Source: an uncultured Candidatus Saccharibacteria bacterium
Lineage (GTDB): Bacteria > Patescibacteriota > CALEFQ01
Assembly: GCA_965230955.1 (NCBI GenBank)
Contig: OZ246404.1
Span: 685,426-749,425 of the forward strand
Direction of reading: 5' to 3'
Length of the DNA: 64,000 nt
This document shows, piece by piece, positions 330-61,778 of the stretch. The notes under the pieces are model-generated. The model saw only the letters and a program-made list of their open reading frames with translations, had not been told where the DNA came from and did no database searches. Position numbers and translations under genes: made by a program. Position 1 is the first letter of the stretch. Every line of letters begins with the position of its first letter.

Positions 330-760
330 GTACCCAAGAAGACCTGTAAGCCGAGTTCTGTTCCCGCCATAGGCGGGAGACGACCATCTATCTGGGCCGG
401 GCATTACTGCTCGGCTCAAGCTGTCGGATTCTATACCCGAAGGCACAGAGTCCACCGACATTACACCAGGTAGGGTTTGTAGCCGGCGGCTGTCACCAGC
501 CGCGGAGAGGGGTCTTACTCCCTCACTTTTCATCCTTACCCTGTGCCAAATGGCACAAGGCGGTATAGTCTCTGTTACACTTTCCCTGGGCTTCGCCGTT
601 TAAAAAGGCATATGCACTTTTCAAATGACTGCTCCCGCTGGACGTTATCCAGTACCACTTTCACCCTTAATCGGGTTTGGTGCTCGGACTTTCCTCTCCA
701 CCCAGCCCCAAAAAGGAGCGTAGTGGAGCGATCATCCGGTAATCTTGGGTAGTGAAATCA
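330..760 (-). ncRNA. rnpB: RNase P RNA (bacterial type A-like)
   Basis: The minus strand contains GAGGAAAGUCCGAGCACC (P4 5' strand; E. coli has GAGGAAAGUCCGGGCUCC). It also has AAGGGUGAAAG (P10/11 region), ACAGAGA and ACAGAACUCGGCUUACAGG (P4 3' strand; E. coli has ACAGAACCCGGCUUAUCGG). These are in the correct order and spacing. Boundaries are approximate. Confidence 0.75.
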
Positions 761-7304: not shown

Positions 7305-7307
7305 AAA

Positions 7308-7388
7308 TCAGGTAACAAGTATCAAGTAATAGGTAACAAAAAGGAAATTATTCCAATTTGATACTTGTCACCTGTTACTTGTTAATTT
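7308..7388. repeat. Palindromic heptad-repeat element, family C (GGTAACA/TGTTACT)
   Basis: Sequence ggtaacaagtatcaagtaataggtaacaaaaaggaaattattccaatttgatacttgtcacctgttacttgtt. It is near-identical to the copy at 43741-43832. Confidence 0.7.
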
Positions 7389-7963: not shown

Positions 7964-8022
7964 AAGTCAAAGGTCAAAAGTAAAAAGTTAATGATTGTAC
8001 TTTTGATTTTTGACTTTTTACC
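7957..8022. repeat. Palindromic heptad-repeat element, family A (GTCAAAR)
   Basis: Sequence gtcaaaagtcaaaggtcaaaagtaaaaagt ... actttttgatttttgactttttac. Confidence 0.7.
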
Positions 8023-9978: not shown

Positions 9979-10377
9979 TTAGCGATCCCACGGCTTGGCC
10001 TCCGGCTGAAAATCAACTTGGTATGCCGGAATTCCCAAAGAAATTCCGTATTTTTTAGCCTGATCGTATTGCTCCGAGCTGGTTCGATCTATCTTGAAAA
10101 CACGTCCACGAAAAACTATATAGTGCCATTGATCATTCTTGAAATCGGCGTACCAATTGTGCCTGGAATCCAATGACCGACTGACGGCTTGCGCTATTGA
10201 CGCGGCTTTTTCTGCCGGGACTTCCACCGTATGCATGGTCCATTGCTTGATCCAAGGAGTTTGGTGTTCCGCGGCCACCTTTTCAACTTCTGTCTTGATT
10301 ATTTTTATGCTGCCCAAGATATCCTTTTTTTCCAAGCTTTCTTCGATGATCACTCCGCGAAAAAAATCATTCAACAT
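9979..10377 (-). CDS. Hypothetical protein
   Basis: ORF in an operon context with no recognisable motif. Confidence 0.45.
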   Translation of the reverse strand: MLNDFFRGVIIEESLEKKDILGSIKIIKTEVEKVAAEHQTPWIKQWTMHTVEVPAEKAASIAQAVSRSLDSRHNWYADFKNDQWHYIVFRGRVFKIDRTSSEQYDQAKKYGISLGIPAYQVDFQPEAKPWDR

Positions 10378-11366: not shown

Positions 11367-11369
11367 ATA

Positions 11370-11446
11370 TGGTCTTTAGTCGTTAGTCTTTGGTCTTTAG
11401 ATTAATCGAGAAAAGCTAAAGACTAAAGACGAAAGACTAAAAGATC
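11370..11446. repeat. Palindromic heptad-repeat element, family B (TCTTTRG)
   Basis: Sequence tggtctttagtcgttagtctttggtctttag ... ctaaagactaaagacgaaagactaaaag. The right arm overlaps the gpmI stop codon. Confidence 0.7.
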
Positions 11447-13038: not shown

Positions 13039-13046
13039 AGGATGTA

Positions 13047-13105
13047 GAGTCTTTGGTCTTTAGTCTTTGGCTAACGACCAAAGAATAAAAACCGCTGACC
13101 AAAAA
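13047..13105. repeat. Heptad-repeat element, family B
   Basis: Sequence agagtctttggtctttagtctttggctaacgaccaaagaataaaaacc. Confidence 0.6.
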
Positions 13106-13122
13106 ACAAAATCAAAATACTT

Positions 13123-14439: not shown

Positions 14440-14444
14440 GAAAG

Positions 14445-14506
14445 TTGTCTTTAGTCGTTAGTCTTTAGTCTTGGGCTAACGACCAAAGACTAAAGACCAA
14501 AGACTT
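14445..14506. repeat. Palindromic heptad-repeat element, family B
   Basis: Sequence gtctttagtcgttagtctttagtcttgggctaacgaccaaagactaaagaccaaagac. Confidence 0.7.
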
Positions 14507-14509
14507 TAA

Positions 14510-15697: not shown

Positions 15698-15698
15698 T

Positions 15699-15732
15699 AT
15701 TGTTACTTGTTCCGTGTTACTTGTTACTTATC
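15699..15732. repeat. Heptad tandem array, family C (TGTTACT). It is a half-element that overlaps the gap 3' end.
   Basis: Sequence tgttacttgttccgtgttacttgttactta. It encodes the C-terminal ...ISNK of GAPDH. Confidence 0.55.
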
Positions 15733-16751: not shown

Positions 16752-16800
16752 AGGTCAAAAGTAAAAAGTGCCAGACTTTTGACTTTTGATTTTTGACCTG
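16738..16800. repeat. Palindromic heptad-repeat element, family A
   Basis: Sequence agtcaaaagtcaaaggtcaaaagtaaaaagtgccagacttttgacttttgatttttgacc. It is followed by the GC palindrome cctgcctgccggcaggcagg (16797-16816). Confidence 0.7.
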
Positions 16801-16817
16801 CCTGCCGGCAGGCAGGC

Positions 16818-19743: not shown

Positions 19744-19756
19744 ATTTTCTCTTCTT

Positions 19757-19795
19757 AAATCTTATATCTTATATCTTATTTCTTATTTCTTTCTG
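19757..19795. repeat. Heptad tandem array, family D (TAAGATA)
   Basis: Sequence cttaaatcttatatcttatatcttatttcttatttc. Confidence 0.55.
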
Positions 19796-19802
19796 TAGCC
19801 CG

Positions 19803-22897: not shown

Positions 22898-23014
22898 CGG
22901 CGGGATATTTTTTCTGCTATCCAAATTTTTATCATCTGCCCCTGTTATGCAGGGCATCCTTCCATTTCGCCTCGCTCAGGGTCAGGAGACTCAGTCAATT
23001 TACCTTTTGCATTA
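22898..23014. repeat. Left copy of a ~115-bp direct repeat flanking the 23130..23597 gene
   Basis: About 90% identical to 23680-23789. Sequence cggcgggatattttttctgctatccaaatttttatcatctgcc...cgctcagggtcaggagactcagtcaatttaccttttgcatt. Confidence 0.8.
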
Positions 23015-23033
23015 TTTCGTCTCATCCCAATAC

Positions 23034-23062
23034 TTGACAAAAACAGCGAAAGAGAGTATAGT
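23034..23062 (+). promoter_or_regulatory. Sigma70-like promoter TTGACA, 17 nt, TATAGT
   Basis: Sequence cTTGACAaaaacagcgaaagagagTATAGTg, about 70 nt upstream of the 23130 ATG. Confidence 0.6.
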
Positions 23063-23129
23063 GTATATATCGAAATTACCGTTTTTCCAATTCTGGTCAG
23101 CAGTTTATTGACTGCAAGGAGGTACGCAA

Positions 23130-23597
23130 ATGAAATACAGTTTTGGTGTGTTGGCGCTGGTTCTACTGTCTGCCTTTAATTCCGTGCTCGCTGATGCCGT
23201 TGACTTTCCGCCCGGTAACAACAAAAAGATGCCCGAAGTAGGATTGGCCGCTGCCGAGGATTACGGAGATCGACAGTTTGCAGCGTGGTTACCTTACTTC
23301 CCAAGCGACAAGGATCACGGTACCTTCGAAGTAAGCACCCGCTACACTCTGTTCGTGCTAATCCCGGAGAGCTTTGGACCCGGCGCAACCGTCAAGGTTT
23401 CGGTCAGTCGTGAAGACGCAAAGGTTCCAATCGATGCTGAAGTTCTACTTTTATCAGAAAAGCTGACAACACATTTTCCCTTAGCGCCTGATGGCATCTT
23501 ACGTATTCCCGACAGTGGCGCCTCAATCATGTTACGCGCGCTACCGCCCCTGACCGTCAAATTCGAGAAAGTACCGAGCCTAACGGACGCGCAGTAG
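23130..23597 (+). CDS. Hypothetical secreted protein. The signal peptide is MKYSFGVLALVLLSAFNSVLA.
   Basis: ATG ORF with its own promoter and terminator. Flanked by direct repeats. Confidence 0.6.
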   Translation: MKYSFGVLALVLLSAFNSVLADAVDFPPGNNKKMPEVGLAAAEDYGDRQFAAWLPYFPSDKDHGTFEVSTRYTLFVLIPESFGPGATVKVSVSREDAKVPIDAEVLLLSEKLTTHFPLAPDGILRIPDSGASIMLRALPPLTVKFEKVPSLTDAQ

Positions 23598-23611
23598 CGC
23601 ACAACATCAGA

Positions 23612-23655
23612 CGGAGTACCCCAGCCACTATGGCCGGTACTCCGTTCTTTTTTTA
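23612..23655 (+). terminator. Intrinsic terminator
   Basis: Hairpin cggagtacc...ggtactccg followed by ttcttttttt. Confidence 0.7.
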
Positions 23656-23659
23656 TAAA

Positions 23660-23692
23660 AAAACCGCCTCTCGGCGGGATATTTTTTCTGCT
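23660..23692 (-). terminator. Intrinsic terminator downstream of secY
   Basis: On the minus strand ccgccgagaggcgg is followed by a T-run. Confidence 0.6.
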
Positions 23693-23789
23693 ATCCAAAT
23701 TTTTATCATCTGCCTCTGTTATCTAAGGGATCCTTACCCTTCGCTTCGCTCAGGGTCAGGAGACTCAGTCAATTTTACCTTTTGCATTT
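23680..23789. repeat. Right copy of the ~115-bp direct repeat
   Basis: See 22898-23014. Confidence 0.8.
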
Positions 23790-23798
23790 TACCTTTAT

Positions 23799-25082: not shown

Positions 25083-25142
25083 GTTTTAGTCTTTGGTCGT
25101 TAGTCTTTGGTCTTTGGTCTTTTGTCGCTTGTCTTTGGTTTT
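25083..25142. repeat. Heptad tandem array, family B (TCTTTGG). It overlaps the 3' end of rplO.
   Basis: Sequence tagtctttggtcgttagtctttggtctttggtcttttgtcgcttgtctttgg. It encodes the L15 tail KPKTSDKRPKTKD. Confidence 0.6.
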
Positions 25143-25624
25143 TCAGACTGGGCGGTTGTTTTCGGCTGTCCGACTGTCTCTATCTTTCCGCCAGACTTGA
25201 GAATCGCCGCTTGCGCTGACTGGCTGAAAGAGATATTTCGAAAACGCATAGAATCAATTTTCCCGGCACCGATAATTTTGGCGCCGCCGCGAGAAGCTTT
25301 GATTAAACCGCGCTGGCATAATGATTTCGGAGTAACCAATTCCCCGTCTTTGAAATGCTTGGCCAAACGGCTCAAACTGACTTCCTCGGCATAAAAACGA
25401 GCGGTTCGCGCGCGAGGATTCTTGTAACCCATACCGCGCAATTTGGGAATTCTCTCGACCAACGACGTCTGTTCGCCTTCAAAACCCAGGCGTTGTCGAC
25501 CGCCGCTGCGCGATAGTTGTCCTTTTTGACCTCGGCCGGATTTGGCGCCTTTGCCACTACCAATACCGCGTCCCCGGCGAAGCTTCTTGTGCTGACGAAA
25601 AATTTTGATATCGTTTATTCTCAT
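25100..25624 (-). CDS. rplO: 50S ribosomal protein L15, with a repeat-encoded C-terminal extension
   Basis: GRGIGSGKGAKSGRGQKGQ motif. Confidence 0.9.
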   Translation of the reverse strand: MRINDIKIFRQHKKLRRGRGIGSGKGAKSGRGQKGQLSRSGGRQRLGFEGEQTSLVERIPKLRGMGYKNPRARTARFYAEEVSLSRLAKHFKDGELVTPKSLCQRGLIKASRGGAKIIGAGKIDSMRFRNISFSQSAQAAILKSGGKIETVGQPKTTAQSEKPKTSDKRPKTKD

Positions 25625-38522: not shown

Positions 38523-38615
38523 CTTAGTTAGTCTTTAGTCTTTAGTCTTTAGTCTTTAGTCTTTAGCCGCGTTTTTAGTCTACCGACTAAAGACTAACGA
38601 CCAAAGACCTAGGAA
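38523..38615. repeat. Palindromic heptad-repeat element, family B
   Basis: Five copies of tagtctt, then a loop, then gactaaagactaacgaccaaagacc. It lies between fusA and rpsG. Confidence 0.75.
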
Positions 38616-38617
38616 AA

Positions 38618-39085: not shown

Positions 39086-39088
39086 AAT

Positions 39089-39160
39089 TGGTCTTTAGTC
39101 ATTAGTCTTTGGTCATTGGTTCAGTCGAAAGACGAAAGACCAAAGACGAAAGACCTAAAT
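39089..39160. repeat. Palindromic heptad-repeat element, family B
   Basis: Sequence ggtctttagtcattagtctttggtcattgg...cgaaagacgaaagaccaaagacgaaagacc. Confidence 0.7.
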
Positions 39161-39163
39161 AAA

Positions 39164-39607: not shown

Positions 39608-39682
39608 AAAAATACTTACCACTGTGAATAATCAGTAGACGTGGCCTAGTTTAACAAAAGAGTTTTGGGACGTCAAGGGCTA

Positions 39683-39720
39683 GATTAAGATATAAGAATT
39701 AAGATATAAGATTCAAGAAG
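39683..39720. repeat. Heptad tandem array, family D (TAAGATA)
   Basis: Sequence tagattaagatataagaattaagatataagattcaag. Confidence 0.55.
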
Positions 39721-39741
39721 AAATATGGACTTCGGACGGTT

Positions 39742-40497: not shown

Positions 40498-40502
40498 AAT
40501 AA

Positions 40503-40590
40503 TTTAAGATGTAAGATATAAGAATTAAGAACAGAAGACGTTTTATCTTACATTTTATTTCTTAAATCTTATATCTTAGAATATCAAACT
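40503..40590. repeat. Palindromic heptad-repeat element, family D
   Basis: Sequence taagatgtaagatataagaattaaga ... tcttaaatcttatatcttagaat. Confidence 0.7.
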
Positions 40591-41630: not shown

Positions 41631-41682
41631 AAAGTCAAAAGTAGAATTACAAAATTTTTTACTTTTGACCTTCGACTTTTAA
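41629..41682. repeat. Palindromic heptad-repeat element, family A
   Basis: Sequence aaaagtcaaaagtagaattacaaaattttttacttttgaccttcgactttt. Confidence 0.65.
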
Positions 41683-41862
<180 letters not shown>

Positions 41863-43737: not shown

Positions 43738-43740
43738 AGG

Positions 43741-43832
43741 GACAAATAACAGGTAAAAAGTAACAGGTAACAAAAGGGATTAATCATTCCAATTTGTGAC
43801 CTGTTACTTGTGACTTGTTACCTGATTCTAAC
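43741..43832. repeat. Palindromic heptad-repeat element, family C
   Basis: Sequence aacaggtaaaaagtaacaggtaacaaaagggattaatcattccaatttgtgacctgttacttgtgacttgttacc. Confidence 0.7.
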
Positions 43833-43839
43833 AAACCTT

Positions 43840-44664
43840 TTATTCCAAGTCTACAGTAATATCCCCATCTTGATCAGTCCGCCTGATGACAATCCCCGCT
43901 TGTTCCACCCGCTGAAGTGTCTCACTGGCCGGATGGCCAAAGCGATTGTCAGCGCCCACAGAAAAAATCACTTCTTGCGGCGACACGGCCTTGATCCAGG
44001 CGGCACTGGTGGAATTTTTACTGCCGTGATGACCGGCTTTCAGTATATCGGCCGCGACATTCGACCGGTGATCGAGCAGTTGTTCCTCCACATCAAAACC
44101 GGCATCACCGGATATAAGGATCGACTTTTTCGGAGAATCCACCCGAACCACCACCGAGGTATCATTAATATTTTTCGGCGTTTGACCGCGCCACTGATCT
44201 TCTTCGAGTGGAAATAAGACAGACAGACGAGCCGAGCCGATTTCAAACTGATCACCCGCGTTCGCTATTTCTTCCGTTGCTCCTTCCCGGGATAATGAAT
44301 CCAGGAAGGTCTCAAAATCCCGGCCCTTGTTCAGAGCTCCCGTCCAGACAAAAGTTTTCACGTCAAATCGATCCAGGACATCAATCAGGCCGGCAAAATG
44401 ATCGCTGTCAGCGTGAGTCAAAATAACCACTTCTATCTCTCGGTCAAAATAAGGCATGGCTTCGCCTAATTTTTCAACGATAGTACGCGACGGACCGCCA
44501 TCAACCAATATCTGGGTCGTCCCCTTTTGGATCAGAGCGGCGTCCCCTTGCCCGACGTCAAAAAAAGTCAGCGTAGCGGGTATTTGTGACTGGCAACCGG
44601 CTACTGCTACCAAGACGGCAGTAATGCCGATGGCGACTAAACTATAAAGTAAATTCTTTTTCAT
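43840..44664 (-). CDS. comEC: ComEC/Rec2 metallo-beta-lactamase domain lipoprotein. It corresponds to the C-terminal part of ComEC but is encoded separately.
   Basis: MBL motif ILTHADSDHFAG. The lipoprotein signal ends in AGC. Confidence 0.75.
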   Translation of the reverse strand: MKKNLLYSLVAIGITAVLVAVAGCQSQIPATLTFFDVGQGDAALIQKGTTQILVDGGPSRTIVEKLGEAMPYFDREIEVVILTHADSDHFAGLIDVLDRFDVKTFVWTGALNKGRDFETFLDSLSREGATEEIANAGDQFEIGSARLSVLFPLEEDQWRGQTPKNINDTSVVVRVDSPKKSILISGDAGFDVEEQLLDHRSNVAADILKAGHHGSKNSTSAAWIKAVSPQEVIFSVGADNRFGHPASETLQRVEQAGIVIRRTDQDGDITVDLE

Positions 44665-46333: not shown

Positions 46334-46334
46334 A

Positions 46335-46394
46335 AAAGAAACCCTCAGGGAGGGTTTTTATAGTCTTTGGTCTTTAGTCTTTAGACTCTAGGCT
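46335..46394. repeat. Terminator hairpin (aaaccctcagggagggttt) plus a short family B element
   Basis: On the minus strand aaaaccctccctgagggtttctttt lies immediately upstream of the comEC ATG. Confidence 0.6.
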
Positions 46395-47628: not shown

Positions 47629-49668
47629 TTATTTGCTTTTGCTACTCAAGACCTGATTGCACTCATAATGTTCCCCGGAAATGTAACCGTGTTCCGGACA
47701 GATGCTGAAAGTCGGCGTAATGGTAAAATACGGCAGATGGAAATTATAAGCGATCGCTTTTACCAGTTTGCCGCAAGTTTCGGGATCGCTGATTCGCTCG
47801 CCCAAAAAACCGTGGAAGACCGTACCGCCGGTGTACTTGGTCTGTAATTCATCCTGTAATTCCAGCGCCTCAAAGATATCGTCGGTATAATCCACCGGCA
47901 GGTGGGTAGAATTCGTATAATATGGATTCTCTTTGCCGCGAGCAATGATGTCGGGAAATTTTTTCTTGTCGATTTTAGCAAATCGATAAGAAGTCCCCTC
48001 GGCCGGCGTCGCTTCCAAATTATATATATTGCCGGTCTCTTTTTGAAATTTTTCCAATTTGCCCCGCATGAAATCCAGCACCCGAACGGAAAACTGGCGA
48101 CCTTCTTCGGTTGACATATTGACATCGGGACCGAAAAAGTTCTGGAGCGCTTCATTCATGCCATTTATGCCAATCGTCGCAAAATGATGCTCCAGACTGC
48201 CTAAATATCTTTTGGTATAAGGCAATAAACCATTATCCATATTGCGCTGAACCATTTCCCGCTTAATTTCAAGCGATTTTTTGCCCAGATCCATCAATCG
48301 ACCTAGTCGCGACATAAATTCTTCTTCGTTTTTAGCCTGGTAGCCAATCCGGGGCAAATTTATGGTGATGACGCCCAGAGAACCGGTTTTTTCACCAGAG
48401 CCAAAGAGGCCGCCGGTCTTTTGTTTAAGCTTGCGCAAATCCATCTGAAGACGGCAACACATACTGCGAACATCACTCGGTTTGAGCTCGCTATTGATGA
48501 AATTTTGAAAATAAGGCAAGCCGTATTTGGCCGTCATTTCAAACAAAAGCTTGGCATTGTCTGATTCCCAATCAAATTCTTTGGTAATGTTATAGGTCGG
48601 GATCGGAAAAGTAAAAATCCGCCCCTTCATGTCACCAGCCAACATGACTTCAATGAAGGCTTTATTGATCATGTCCATTTCCCGCTGGTAATCTCCGTAT
48701 TTGGTGTCCAGAATTTTACCGCCGACAATTACATTTTGATTTTTAAGGTCGGCCGGCACGGTCCAGTCAAAAGTCAGATTAGTAAATGGCGTCTGGCACC
48801 CCCAACGTGAGGGAGTATTCATACTAAAAACAAATTGTTGGATGTTTTGCTTTACCCTTTTGTAGTCACACTTATCGGCTCTGACAAAAGGCGCCAAATA
48901 GGTATCAAACGAACTGAAAGCCTGAGCGCCCGCCCATTCGTTTTGCAGCGTACCCAGAAAATTAATCAGCTGGCCGATGACGGTTTCCAAATGCTTGGCC
49001 GGACCGGATTCAACCTTAGAAGGAACTCCATTGAATCCTTCCAAGAGTAAATCTTTTAAGCTCCACCCGGCACAATAGCCGTTAATACCCATGGACAGAT
49101 CGTGAATATGCAAATCGCCGCTCTTGTGGGCATCGGAAATTTCCCGAGGATAGATATTTTCCAGGACATAATTGGCAATAATCGACCCGGATAAATGAAG
49201 AGCCAACCCGGAAAAAGAATAATTCACATTACTGTTTTCATTGACCCGCCAGTCTTCCCGTTTCAGGTATTCATCCATCGTCTTGGTGGCATCAACCAAA
49301 ATAGTTTTGGTATCGCGGATTTTTCGATGCTGCTCGCGATACAGAATATAAGCCTTGGCGGTATCAGCATATCCCGCATGAATTAAAACCCGCTCGACGA
49401 CATCCTGTACTTCCTCCACGGCCGGAATATATCCTTTGTCCTTGCCAGATAGTCTCTTTTCTAATTCAGCCACCGCGCGCCAAGCCAGATTACTGGCGGT
49501 CTCTCGATCTTTTCCTCCGACAGATTGAGCGGCTTTAAAAATAGCAGATTCCATTCGATTAACATCAAAATCGACGATCCGCCCATCACGCTTGCGCACT
49601 TTCTCAAAAGGTACAGTCTGTTTTATTTTGGTCATGGAGGTTTGCTTCCTGCCGGCGGACAGTGACAC
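47629..49668 (-). CDS. nrdD: Anaerobic ribonucleoside-triphosphate reductase (class III), main body. It ends at an in-frame TAA 11 codons before the glycyl-radical ORF.
   Basis: N-terminal ATP cone and the class III RNR core. Confidence 0.85.
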   Translation of the reverse strand: MSLSAGRKQTSMTKIKQTVPFEKVRKRDGRIVDFDVNRMESAIFKAAQSVGGKDRETASNLAWRAVAELEKRLSGKDKGYIPAVEEVQDVVERVLIHAGYADTAKAYILYREQHRKIRDTKTILVDATKTMDEYLKREDWRVNENSNVNYSFSGLALHLSGSIIANYVLENIYPREISDAHKSGDLHIHDLSMGINGYCAGWSLKDLLLEGFNGVPSKVESGPAKHLETVIGQLINFLGTLQNEWAGAQAFSSFDTYLAPFVRADKCDYKRVKQNIQQFVFSMNTPSRWGCQTPFTNLTFDWTVPADLKNQNVIVGGKILDTKYGDYQREMDMINKAFIEVMLAGDMKGRIFTFPIPTYNITKEFDWESDNAKLLFEMTAKYGLPYFQNFINSELKPSDVRSMCCRLQMDLRKLKQKTGGLFGSGEKTGSLGVITINLPRIGYQAKNEEEFMSRLGRLMDLGKKSLEIKREMVQRNMDNGLLPYTKRYLGSLEHHFATIGINGMNEALQNFFGPDVNMSTEEGRQFSVRVLDFMRGKLEKFQKETGNIYNLEATPAEGTSYRFAKIDKKKFPDIIARGKENPYYTNSTHLPVDYTDDIFEALELQDELQTKYTGGTVFHGFLGERISDPETCGKLVKAIAYNFHLPYFTITPTFSICPEHGYISGEHYECNQVLSSKSK

Positions 49669-50132: not shown

Positions 50133-50242
50133 ATATTTTCAGCCAAATTTGAGGTCAAAAAAATACCTAGCCGTTCACCCGTGGTTTCCTAAGAAAGAGC
50201 TATTTATCCACGACCAGAAAGATTTTCTACCAGCTGGCCTCT

Positions 50243-50285
50243 AGATATAGTGCTAATATTTTTATTATAGCACTATATATAAATC
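50243..50285 (-). promoter_or_regulatory. NrdR-box-like palindrome overlapping a TATAAT -10 element. I read it as the operator/promoter of nrdR-nrdD-nrdG.
   Basis: atatagtgcta / tagcactatat are 11-bp inverted arms. gCACTATATATA matches the left half of the NrdR-box consensus ACACTATATATAGTGT. Confidence 0.45.
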
Positions 50286-50377
50286 TCTAAAAGTTCCCTC
50301 CCTACCTGAATATTTAGCTTATAATAAAGGAAAACTACCAGTATTTATATCACTTATGTATAACCACGGGGTATTTC

Positions 50378-51871: not shown

Positions 51872-51941
51872 AAAATTACATCTTTATGGTGTAACTTTTC
51901 TCACACCAGCTCGAGAAAAAGTTCACTCATTTATTAATTAA

Positions 51942-51992
51942 GTTAAAAGTCAAAGGTCAAAAGTCGAAACTTTTTACTTTTGACTTTTTACT
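51942..51992. repeat. Palindromic heptad-repeat element, family A. It is followed by the GC hairpin gccccgaggtgtctcggggc.
   Basis: Sequence aagtcaaaggtcaaaagtcgaaactttttacttttgacttttt. Confidence 0.7.
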
Positions 51993-52042
51993 TAGTAATA
52001 AAAATGCCCCGAGGTGTCTCGGGGCGCAACTATTATAGTTGT

Positions 52043-53287
52043 TTATGGCAGGAAGGTTTTGAACCACTTCTTCATTTTCCCGACAGTATCGGAAACGGAA
52101 GAAGGTAAACCGCCGCGTTTGAAACGGCCGGTTCGAACCTCGGTTCCTGCACCCCATAAGACTAAACCTACGGCTGTGGCAAAAGAAGGATCTTCAATCT
52201 TATCGACGGCGACCGGAATTCCAGTCGGCAAACCAATTTGCGCCGGCAAGCGTAATTCTTCTTTGGCATAGTCGACAATGTCAGGCATCTTGGCTCCGCC
52301 TCCGGTCAAAACAACACCGGCGGGAAGCTGCCCGCTTTTGCCAACCTTGCGTAATTCTTTATCAACGAGCGAAAATATTTCCGACAATCTGGCTTCGACA
52401 ATTTCAGCGATTTCTTTGCGATCAACAGTCTGAGCTTCGTGACGATCGATTTTAGCCAGGTTGATTTCTTCTTTTTCAGTGATAGTCGAAGGCAAAGCAG
52501 TTCCGTATTCCAATTTGACCGTTTCGGCCACATCAACCGAAGTCCTGAGTCCGATCGCGATATCATTTGTAATATGTTCGGCTCCGACCGGTAAAACTTT
52601 GGTATGGATCAAATCGCCTTCTTCGTACGCGATCAAACTGGTGGTACCCGCCCCGACATCAACCAGGACTACACCCAATTCCTTTTGGCGCTTGGTCAAT
52701 ACCGCTTCCGCGGCTGCCAAAGGAGAAAGAACCAAATCATCAATATCAACTCCGGCACGATATATGCATTTCGTCAGATTTTTAATGAAAGACGACGCTC
52801 CTTGGATAATGTGGGCTTCCACTTCCAGCCGGACGCCGCTCATGCCAATCGGATCTTTGATACCTTCTTGATCATCGACAATAAAAGTTTTAGGAATAAC
52901 ATGTAGAATTTCCCGATTGCTTGGTAAAGAAATGGCCTGAGCCGCTTCTATCACTCGGGAAACATCATCTTCGCCGATTTCACCATCCGCCCGCGAGACC
53001 GCAATTACGCCTCGGCTCAATTGCGAAGTTACGTGGGCGCCGCCGATGGAAACATAAGCCGATTCAATCGGAAAGCCGGTAACTCTTTCCGCCTTTTCCA
53101 GGGCAGTGGAAATGCTGCCCACTGCTTCTTCCACATCAACAATCACGCCACGTCGGATTCCGGAAGACGGAGCCAGACCGACACCAATAATATGAGGCTT
53201 TTCATCATTCGCCGCATACTGTCCGACTAACACTCGGACTATACTGGAGCCGATATCCAGACCAACAATTATTTCTTCTTTAGCCAT
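52043..53287 (-). CDS. ftsA: Cell division protein FtsA
   Basis: Start at MAKEEIIVGLDIGSS, with an actin-like fold. The track start is TTG. Confidence 0.9.
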   Translation of the reverse strand: MAKEEIIVGLDIGSSIVRVLVGQYAANDEKPHIIGVGLAPSSGIRRGVIVDVEEAVGSISTALEKAERVTGFPIESAYVSIGGAHVTSQLSRGVIAVSRADGEIGEDDVSRVIEAAQAISLPSNREILHVIPKTFIVDDQEGIKDPIGMSGVRLEVEAHIIQGASSFIKNLTKCIYRAGVDIDDLVLSPLAAAEAVLTKRQKELGVVLVDVGAGTTSLIAYEEGDLIHTKVLPVGAEHITNDIAIGLRTSVDVAETVKLEYGTALPSTITEKEEINLAKIDRHEAQTVDRKEIAEIVEARLSEIFSLVDKELRKVGKSGQLPAGVVLTGGGAKMPDIVDYAKEELRLPAQIGLPTGIPVAVDKIEDPSFATAVGLVLWGAGTEVRTGRFKRGGLPSSVSDTVGKMKKWFKTFLP

Positions 53288-55676: not shown

Positions 55677-55679
55677 GTT

Positions 55680-55725
55680 AGTGGTCTTTAGTCATTAGTC
55701 TTTGGTCTAGAGACTACTGACTGAT
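55680..55725. repeat. Short family B element between the HIT gene and the miaB-like gene
   Basis: Sequence ggtctttagtcattagtctttggtctagagactac. Confidence 0.55.
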
Positions 55726-61711: not shown

Positions 61712-61778
61712 GATATAAGATGTAAGAAAGTAAATCGATCTTATATTTTATATCTTAAATCTTATATCTTACATCTTG
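61706..61778. repeat. Palindromic heptad-repeat element, family D
   Basis: Sequence tttaagatataagatgtaagaaag ... cttatattttatatcttaaatcttatatcttacatctt. Confidence 0.7.

Follow-up and report, generated by a model that had tools for sequence, protein, structure and literature searches.

Family C palindromes of a Patescibacteria (CPR) genome are heptanucleotide repeats arranged as REP-like palindromes in intercistronic spacers

Short tandemly repeated repetitive (STRR) sequences, whose canonical cyanobacterial units are CCCCAGT, TTGGTCA and CAACAGT, were reportedly described by Mazel in 1990 from heterocystous cyanobacteria. REP and BIME elements are multi-copy sequences with a clade-specific consensus that lie between co-transcribed genes and have been proposed to stabilise mRNA. 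Structurally, they are imperfect intergenic palindromes (Di Nocera 2013, PMC3733652). The commonest long simple-sequence repeats in prokaryotes are heptanucleotide repeats, for which polymerase slippage has been proposed (Mrazek 2007, as cited in PMC4679880). In marine Beggiatoaceae, Cyanobacteria and Bacteroidetes, TAACTGA arrays precede start codons by no more than a few nucleotides and occupy spacers without canonical ribosome-binding sites (MacGregor 2015, PMC4679880). They comprise 169 direct-repeat sets and one indirect repeat, and the downstream genes share no functional theme (PMC4679880). The (ATCTTTC)n repeats in the 5′-UTR of Haemophilus influenzae hmw1 form a long hairpin, and its cleavage by RNase III raises expression (PMC12721329). 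In Nostoc, heptamer repeats near start codons or promoters affect expression (10.1101/2022.06.06.494920). The genomes of Patescibacteria (CPR) are tiny and their spacers very short, so that any sequence retained in these spacers is informative.

Here, we describe palindromic elements, termed Family C, in a 64 kb stretch of DNA (the window) from such a genome. It was compared with syntenic loci from relatives, whose identity to the window was gauged in the glycosyltransferase (L139, 82%; L137, 78%; L140, 79%) or in PorA (L143, 86%; L141, 84%; L142, 80%; L146, 66%). Nearly all window genes lie on the minus strand, and the Family C elements are thus best read on this strand. Both palindromes that a preliminary description had placed at 43741-43832 and 7308-7388 are present, and their arms and centres can be aligned with each other. 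In the sense orientation, both read (GTAACAR)n, CAAATTGGAAT, loop, YCCYTTTTG, (YTGTTAC)n. Their inverted repeats measure 33-34 nt per arm with 76-82% complementarity, and the GC content of Family C is 0.28-0.35.

The element at 43738-43839 (minus strand) occupies the whole 102-nt spacer between the stop codon (43840) of an MBL-fold (ComEC-C-like) gene at 43840-44664 and the ATG (43737) of an MGDG-synthase-like glycosyltransferase, which has 379 aa in an independent gene call. Its predicted imperfect hairpin of 33 bp (MFE -32.4 kcal/mol, z -4.9) begins 15 nt past the stop codon and finishes 5 nt ahead of the ATG. The 5′ arm (43794-43828, minus strand) reads GAATCAG GTAACAA GTCACAA GTAACAG GTCACAA in mRNA sense, and the 3′ arm (43746-43773, minus strand), which adjoins the start codon, TTGTTAC CTGTTAC TTTTTAC CTGTTAT. 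Between them lies an apical module (43771-43796, minus strand; sense CAAATTGGAATGATTAATCCCTTTTG) that folds into a CAAA/UUUG stem, a 2x2 U.U/U.C mismatch, a GGA/UCC stem and an 8-nt terminal loop. Tandem Repeats Finder detects period 7 at 43747-43821, with 3.7 and 3.6 copies. In three metagenome samples of the same strain, the sequence is 100% identical to the window, this element included, and the samples show no variation in repeat number.

The second element, at 7305-7387 (minus strand; MFE -27.9 kcal/mol, z -6.2), fills the 83-nt spacer from the porG stop (7388) to the porD start (7304), within the operon of the four-subunit pyruvate:ferredoxin oxidoreductase (porGDAB). Here, the hairpin begins 13 nt past the porG stop and finishes 4 nt ahead of the porD ATG. 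The apical module lies at 7337-7360 (minus strand; sense CAAATTGGAATAATTTCCTTTTTG), and period 7 extends over 3.1 copies at 7307-7328 (Tandem Repeats Finder). What had been noted as a half-element at 15699-15732 is a one-armed array, with 4.3 units of TTGTTAC at 15700-15729 (Tandem Repeats Finder). In its full extent of 15698-15729 (minus strand), it reads AAGTAAC AAGTAAC ACGGAAC AAGTAAC AATA-ATG in sense, spanning the entire 19-nt GAPDH-PGK spacer and contributing the TAA stop of GAPDH together with the three codons before it.

Family C is real and non-random. When up to 3 mismatches were allowed, the two-unit arm pattern GTAACAGGTAACAA matched 18 times against an expectation of 2.9 ± 1.7, and none of 100 shuffles gave as many; 16 of the 18 matches fall within the three loci named above. 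The single heptamer GGTAACA is not enriched in the window (7 occurrences against 3.6 expected). The two palindromes fold with z values of -4.9 and -6.2 in sense and -6.2 and -6.0 in antisense, and no shuffle folded equally well. In the Family C alignment, 83% of the arm cells are paired, a figure that falls to 34-57% once the partner is shifted by 1-3 columns. Covariation in the arms, which the preliminary description had suggested looking for, was not significant within Family C (94 of 500 shuffles reached the observed score), the arms being too uniform. Of three occurrences of the exact 11-mer ATTCCAATTTG in the window, two are at the palindrome centres and one, at 52507, lies inside a gene. 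The latter match and a one-mismatch relative at 48051 were considered as further copies and discarded as chance matches, both lying in coding sequence.

Family C is no stand-alone motif but one flavour of a larger class of heptamer palindromes. By Tandem Repeats Finder and a periodicity count, the 64 kb hold 19 arrays of period 7 and none of period 5, 6 or 8-11, and shuffled sequences hold none. At least five flavours can be distinguished, namely GTCTTTR/YAAAGAC, GTCAAAA/TTTTGAC, TAAGATA/TATCTTA, the AATTCAAAATGCAT-type and GTAACAR/YTGTTAC (Family C), with GTAACAR, GTCTTTR, GTCAAAA, TAAGATA and ATTTTGA as unit sequences. The majority of arrays are inverted pairs that fill spacers between co-directional genes. 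Their hairpins fold with z values of -4.9 to -8.3 against shuffles, and the 3′ arm has its foot 4-17 nt short of the following start codon. With at least three head-to-tail 7-nt units at many intergenic loci, they qualify as heptanucleotide tandem repeats.

GTCAAAA/TTTTGAC hairpins lie in the TSP3-porG spacer (7964-8017, minus strand) and at 16752-16817, 41631-41691 and about 51915-51997. The GTCTTTR/YAAAGAC flavour forms a hairpin in the PGK-enolase spacer (14440-14509, minus strand), further hairpins at 11367-11436, 13039-13122, 38523-38617 and 39086-39163, and one-armed arrays at 25085-25143, 46334-46373 and 55677-55713. TAAGATA/TATCTTA hairpins are found at 40498-40575 (minus strand) and, between plus-strand genes, at 61712-61775, and one-armed arrays of this flavour at 19744-19802 and 39623-39741. 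The last of these, a TATCTTA array in the Hyd-S12 spacer, lies immediately 5′ of a conserved promoter-like sequence, TTGACG-17-TAAACT, that precedes rpsL; arrays can thus sit upstream of promoters too.

All arrays lie in spacers or spill into gene ends, with one exception. The GTCAAAA array at 2020-2056 is in frame within a minus-strand RNase H gene (1721-2134) and encodes KVKGQKSKVKK; L141 and L142 keep EVKSQKSKVKR, and the four-unit stretch is thus tolerated or used in the protein. The arrays at 25085-25143 and 15717-15729 enter the 3′ ends of genes and supply their stop codons. The C-termini affected are those of ribosomal protein L15 (ending in PKTSDKRPKTKD) and GAPDH (ending in ISNK). The 7.9 kb to the left of the window, a tightly packed glycosyltransferase operon, carry no heptamer elements. 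No Rfam family reached its gathering threshold for the heptamer elements, for which a search in E-value mode gave only miRNA-precursor-like matches (14-26 bits against thresholds of 42-211). The one family that passes in the window is RNase P, with a bacterial class A RNase P RNA of 201 bits at 331-747 (minus strand).

Comparing orthologous spacers reveals rapid change at fixed sites. In the MBL-MGDG spacer, where the window has Family C, L139 carries Family C with a flipped centre (sense CAAAAAGGGATTATTCCAATTTG), L137 a decayed copy that has lost the 5′ arm with centre and 3′ arm still recognisable, and L140 no heptamers. The porG-porD spacer holds a full palindrome in the window, only a start-proximal TGTTACY array in L143 (CTGTTACTTGTTAATTGTTACTT) and, shorter, in L141, and a remnant in L142; in L146 there is no spacer. 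By this comparison, the lineage of the window has gained a centre and another arm on top of a homologous array that was already there. Between ftsA and ftsZ, the window and L140 have a GTCAAAA hairpin, and L139 (CAAATTGGAATAGTTCCTTTTTG) and L137 (CAAAGAATCTCTAATTTG) have Family C. The S12-S7 spacer contains a GTCTTTR/YAAAGAC hairpin in the window and L140 and a GTCTATA/TATAGAC hairpin in L139 and L137, so both arms changed together between species. The region 3′ of adk carries GTCAAAA in the window, L139 and L140, and Family C in L137. In the enolase-iPGM spacer, L143 has (CAAAGAC)4 and L141 (CAAAGAC)2, a difference of exactly 14 nt or two units. The hairpin of the iPGM-pfkB spacer is absent from L143 and L141. 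Array density ranges from 6.8 per 10 kb in L139 down to 0 in L146. Taken together, these comparisons indicate that the hairpins keep their position, whereas the number and sequence of the units, the presence of a second arm and the direction in which the centre faces all turn over.

Such turnover raises the question of whether the elements do anything at all. They could be a neutral by-product, in which slippage expands arrays, snap-back template switching turns them into palindromes, and the products persist in spacers as harmless sequence. The fast gain, loss, decay and change in unit number among close relatives would fit, as would the range in density from 0 to 6.8 arrays per 10 kb, the spilling of arrays into 3′ gene ends and the occurrence of similar multi-flavour heptamer arrays in many phyla. 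Slippage is also the process proposed for prokaryotic heptanucleotide repeats in general (Mrazek 2007, as cited in PMC4679880). However, several species have hairpins at the same spacers, built there from different units, and the feet of the hairpins regularly lie next to stop and start codons. Moreover, mutation alone leaves the dominance of inverted pairs over single arrays unexplained, and the apical module is conserved over near-saturated divergence. We therefore consider a purely neutral origin unlikely, though far from negligible.

Three further features were noted in the course of these comparisons. A 132-aa ORF at 9979-10377 (minus strand), which has no Pfam match, lies within a 431-nt pfkB-PTAC spacer; as this spacer measures only 8-10 nt in the three closest relatives, the ORF is a lineage-specific insertion. 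A plus-strand ORF (23130-23597; 155 aa, no Pfam match) is flanked, at 22958-23129 and 23598-23798, by a direct repeat, AAAAGGTAAA(A)TTGACTGAGTCTCCTGACCCTGAGCGARGCGAA, some 45 nt long, and could be a small insertion or a duplication. The spacer at 50133-50353 upstream of nrdR-nrdD contains a palindromic block, TATATAGTGCTATAAT...ATTAGCACTATATCTAG, that is kept in all four related genomes and presumably resembles NrdR-box operators.

A Shine-Dalgarno-like motif lies within 20 nt of the start codon in only 7 of the 73 window genes; what precedes the start codons is either AU-rich sequence or heptamer arrays. Being stable hairpins at gene ends, the elements might be Rho-independent terminators or attenuators. 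Yet Family C has AT-rich stems of 30 bp and no T-tract, unlike the GC-rich stem and T-tract of an intrinsic terminator, and a terminator scan returned no signature at 43738-43839 or 7305-7387. One copy, moreover, is internal to an operon (porGDAB) and comes within 4 nt of the porD start. Canonical terminators with a GC-rich stem and T-tract exist in this genome separately from the heptamer hairpins, for example after ftsA. A role in termination is thus hardly credible.

Directly 5′ of the 43738-43839 hairpin lies a promoter-like site, TAGACT-17-TGtTAGAAT (43825-43853, minus strand). Its extended -10 motif, TGnTAnAAT, is found at the same place in four of four related genomes (window, TGTTAGAAT; L139, TGGTAGAAT; L137, TGCTAATAT; L140, TGATACAAT), where the neighbouring spacer sequence is unalignable by eye. 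From this conserved motif we infer a promoter upstream of the 43738 copy, and of that copy only. With a start about 7 nt downstream of the extended -10, the transcript would begin at the foot of the hairpin, which would then form the 5′-terminal stem-loop of a glycosyltransferase-adk mRNA. A 5′-terminal stem-loop is a classic stabiliser arrangement. A duplex of at least 20 bp, as in the hmw type, is predicted at this copy, behind a putative promoter read from the conserved TGnTAnAAT.

The centre sets Family C apart from its sibling flavours. The two window palindromes share a centre of 24-26 nt. Folded, the centre of Family C gives CAAA/UUUG, a 2x2 U.U/U.Y mismatch, GGA/UCC and a loop of 3-8 nt. 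The preliminary description had called it a conserved loop; conserved the centre is, but most of it is base-paired, and the true terminal loop differs (UAAU vs AUGAUUAA). A search of 1.24 Mb by regular expression and a covariance model (R1) yielded seven copies of Family C, some of them decayed: three belong to L137, and the window and L139 have two each. A covariance-model scan had been proposed at the outset; R1 recovers the known copies and adds none beyond those found by eye or regular expression, and it also matches GTCAAAA hairpins at lower scores. The same search found no Family C copy in the 120 listed loci from other phyla. In JGI metagenomes, the arm-plus-centre pattern gave 13 matches, all of them chance matches inside unrelated genes, and the apical-module pattern gave 0 matches in viral contigs.

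Conservation of the centre extends past the window, as both L139 copies (ftsA-ftsZ and MBL-MGDG) carry CAAATTGGAAT..YCCYTTTTG almost unchanged. Across the window and L139, the 11-nt CAAATTGGAAT is invariant in all four copies and YCCYTTTTG nearly so, and the nucleotides between them vary in length and sequence. Four-fold degenerate sites are only 42-53% identical between the window and L139, near saturation, which points to some constraint or copying drive on the module. Conservation this strong at such divergence, mismatches included, exceeds what a generic hairpin would require. The L137 module has diverged, with a clear GAA/UUC apical stem in one copy; another shows AGA/UCU in one pairing register only, with a single-pair tip in the symmetric register and the minimum-energy fold. 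These stems differ from GGA/UCC on both sides, a change that would be compensatory, clearly in the first copy and tentatively in the second. Relative to transcription, the module is oriented in sense in four of the seven copies and flipped in three, and the flip separates the orthologous MBL-MGDG copies of the window and L139.

These additional copies bear directly on the proposal, made in the preliminary description, that the centre is recognised in a sequence-specific manner rather than forming a generic hairpin, a proposal that non-conservation of the loop in further copies was to refute. The module is kept in the two L139 copies, but the terminal loop varies and L137 has diverged. Under this proposal, the centre would be a sequence-specific site for a regulatory protein or RNA, such as an operator or riboregulator target, and the arms would serve to present it. 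The invariance of CAAATTGGAAT and YCCYTTTTG in four copies from two species speaks for such a site. Such a site is hard to reconcile with a gap between GGAA and TTCC of 3-8 nt, unlike a fixed dimer site, with the variable terminal loop and with the presence of both orientations. The L137 apical stems, moreover, depart from GGA/UCC on both sides, the downstream genes (porD, glycosyltransferase, ftsZ) are functionally unrelated, and JGI metagenomes and viral contigs contain 0 copies. At orthologous spacers, flavours lacking such a core take the place of Family C. Variable loop and spacing, both orientations and core-less replacements argue against a strand-specific ligand site, and the original claim of specific recognition is not supported; we consider a regulatory binding site very improbable.

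Alternatively, the module with its 2x2 mismatch could be recognised by a trans-acting enzyme, a recombinase of RAYT/HUH type or another kind, that would copy, paste and flip the palindrome, making Family C a selfish or mobile REP-like element whose effect on the host is incidental. As short imperfect intergenic palindromes in multiple copies, the elements do conform to the description of REP/REPIN sequences. Two species carry the same module in spacers that are not orthologous (ftsA-ftsZ of L139, porG-porD of the window), it is found in both orientations, it is conserved even though four-fold sites are near saturation, its mismatches are retained and not corrected to a perfect palindrome, and flavours are replaced at orthologous sites. 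Against this stands the search for an enzyme. No transposase was found among 20 window proteins scanned against Pfam, all of which are housekeeping or unassigned, and neither these proteins nor the gene calls at the loci of the closer relatives include a transposase or RAYT. This amounts to about 200 kb of the clade, and some 6% of the genome, which makes the absence weak evidence. L146, in turn, has an rve-family integrase gene yet no heptamer arrays. By eye, the hairpin foot of both window copies bears no GTAG/CGTC tag, and sibling flavours behave alike without a special centre. Finally, relatives already carry a homologous TGTTACY array at the porD site, a pattern consistent with copying driven by homology. 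We regard mobility of this kind as unlikely, though not negligible. Two unrelated candidates were also rejected. A DNA-uptake sequence, conceivable with ComEC present, was rejected on account of the at least five different units and their confinement to spacers. TIGR arrays have been reported from CPR (PMC12045711). They are arrays of roughly 36-nt guide units, whereas the window elements are single hairpins of 7-nt units, and they were likewise rejected.

Taking these lines of evidence together, we favour the explanation that Family C acts in cis as a generic hairpin of the mRNA and arose by slippage of 7-nt units and by copying or template switching between arrays, and we would give it an even chance of being correct. 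We counted in its favour the anatomy and placement, fold stability, specificity for period 7 with at least five flavours, recurrence in the same spacer with different units, slippage, arm gain, flip, extended -10, lack of a terminator signature, scarcity of Shine-Dalgarno-like motifs and the precedents of the hmw1, TAACTGA and Nostoc heptamers. Counted against it were the dispensability of the elements at given sites (as in L140, L143, L141 and L146), the non-significant covariation within the family, the strong conservation of the apical module and the constant repeat number in three samples. Anatomy, placement, fold stability, distribution in the clade, turnover, flips and module conservation are shown directly; transcription of the elements, a function at the RNA level and the mechanism of slippage and conversion are what we infer from these patterns.

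Under this explanation as an mRNA hairpin, Family C would be a sequence flavour of clade-specific tandem-heptamer palindromes in a Patescibacteria (CPR) genome of roughly 1.1 Mb. The plan of the element is (GTAACAR)3-5, an apical module of 23-26 nt and (YTGTTAC)3-5, filling the spacer of co-directional genes. When transcribed, it would fold into a mismatched hairpin of about 30 bp with its foot 13-15 nt past the stop codon and 4-5 nt ahead of the next start codon. Such a hairpin might protect or segment the mRNA, similar to 5′ stem-loop stabilisers, REP/BIME stabilisers or the long-duplex substrates of RNase III-type enzymes. It may also keep AU-rich intercistronic RNA folded, or set the access to start codons that have no Shine-Dalgarno site. 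The array DNA would be made and renewed by slippage of 7-nt units, and template switching or ectopic conversion between arrays could add a second arm, flip the centre or replace the flavour. The apical module would then be the conserved tip of the helix, inherited via copying, and not a ligand site. A dedicated recognition or mobilisation factor for the module seems rather unlikely to us. A more novel idea, and a distinct long shot, is that CAAAUU-GGA...UCC-YUUUUG, with its conserved 2x2 mismatch, is the handle of an undescribed trans-acting CPR system that copies, flips and swaps palindromes from one intercistronic spacer to another, with the flavours as addresses for different RNA- or DNA-binding factors in a genome-wide post-transcriptional code of bacteria poor in Shine-Dalgarno sites.

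Tandem-heptamer hairpins make up the bulk of the spacers in central operons (glycolysis, por, ribosomal proteins, ftsAZ). If these act on mRNA, they would be one of the main means by which expression is controlled within operons, in a lineage where Shine-Dalgarno sites are hardly used, and a natural system in which simple-sequence repeats become structured RNA. If they are mutational or selfish, they would show that non-coding DNA can turn over in concert, and at an unusual rate, where genomes are reduced.

Arrays of this kind are widespread. In species-representative genomes, three consecutive GTCKTTR units occur at 120 or more loci from Acidobacteriota, Bacteroidota, Gemmatimonadota, Omnitrophota, Patescibacteria, Cyanobacteria and others. 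Among the matches listed, many loci (L017-L136) carry several heptamer flavours per 8 kb, some as inverted pairs. Examples of such loci, with arrays of GTCKTTR type and of other types, are L077 (5979-6063), L056 (5326-5413), L029 (7622-7776), L033 and L046. The presence of arrays in other phyla, some as inverted pairs, suggests that palindromic heptamer repeats are under-described.

Comparing Family C with REP/BIME and REPIN/RAYT elements, both are multi-copy imperfect intergenic palindromes with a clade-specific consensus. However, the arms of Family C are tandem heptamers, and its elements are longer (65-80 nt). A GTAG/CGTC tag is not apparent by eye, and RAYT was not found in the DNA examined here (about 6% of the genome).

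In the hmw1 leader, a heptamer simple-sequence repeat is transcribed into a long imperfect hairpin between promoter and start codon, a cis-acting RNA established by experiment; a comparable hairpin behind a putative promoter is predicted for the 43738 copy. The right arm in hmw1 is formed by a G-rich region without repeats, and changes in repeat number bring about phase variation of a surface adhesin. In the window, by contrast, both arms are repeats, the genes are housekeeping genes, and no variation occurs among three samples.

With the TAACTGA repeats, the window elements have in common a placement close to start codons, spacers largely devoid of canonical ribosome-binding sites, the lack of a theme among downstream genes and a similar unit (TAACTGA vs TAACAGG/TAACAAG in the window). 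Unlike the TAACTGA repeats, hairpin-forming inverted pairs are the rule here, and several flavours coexist.

A close likeness also exists to STRR and heptanucleotide repeats, which equally consist of head-to-tail 7-nt units, with several units per genome, mostly in intergenic regions and at many loci; the cyanobacterial locus L028 carries equally multi-flavour arrays. The window units, however, match no canonical STRR unit and belong to the phylum Patescibacteria. The window arrays mostly form inverted arms that fill intercistronic spacers, and Family C has a conserved apical module that is not itself a repeat. Family C thus represents heptanucleotide, STRR-like repeats arranged as REP-like palindromes in CPR bacteria.
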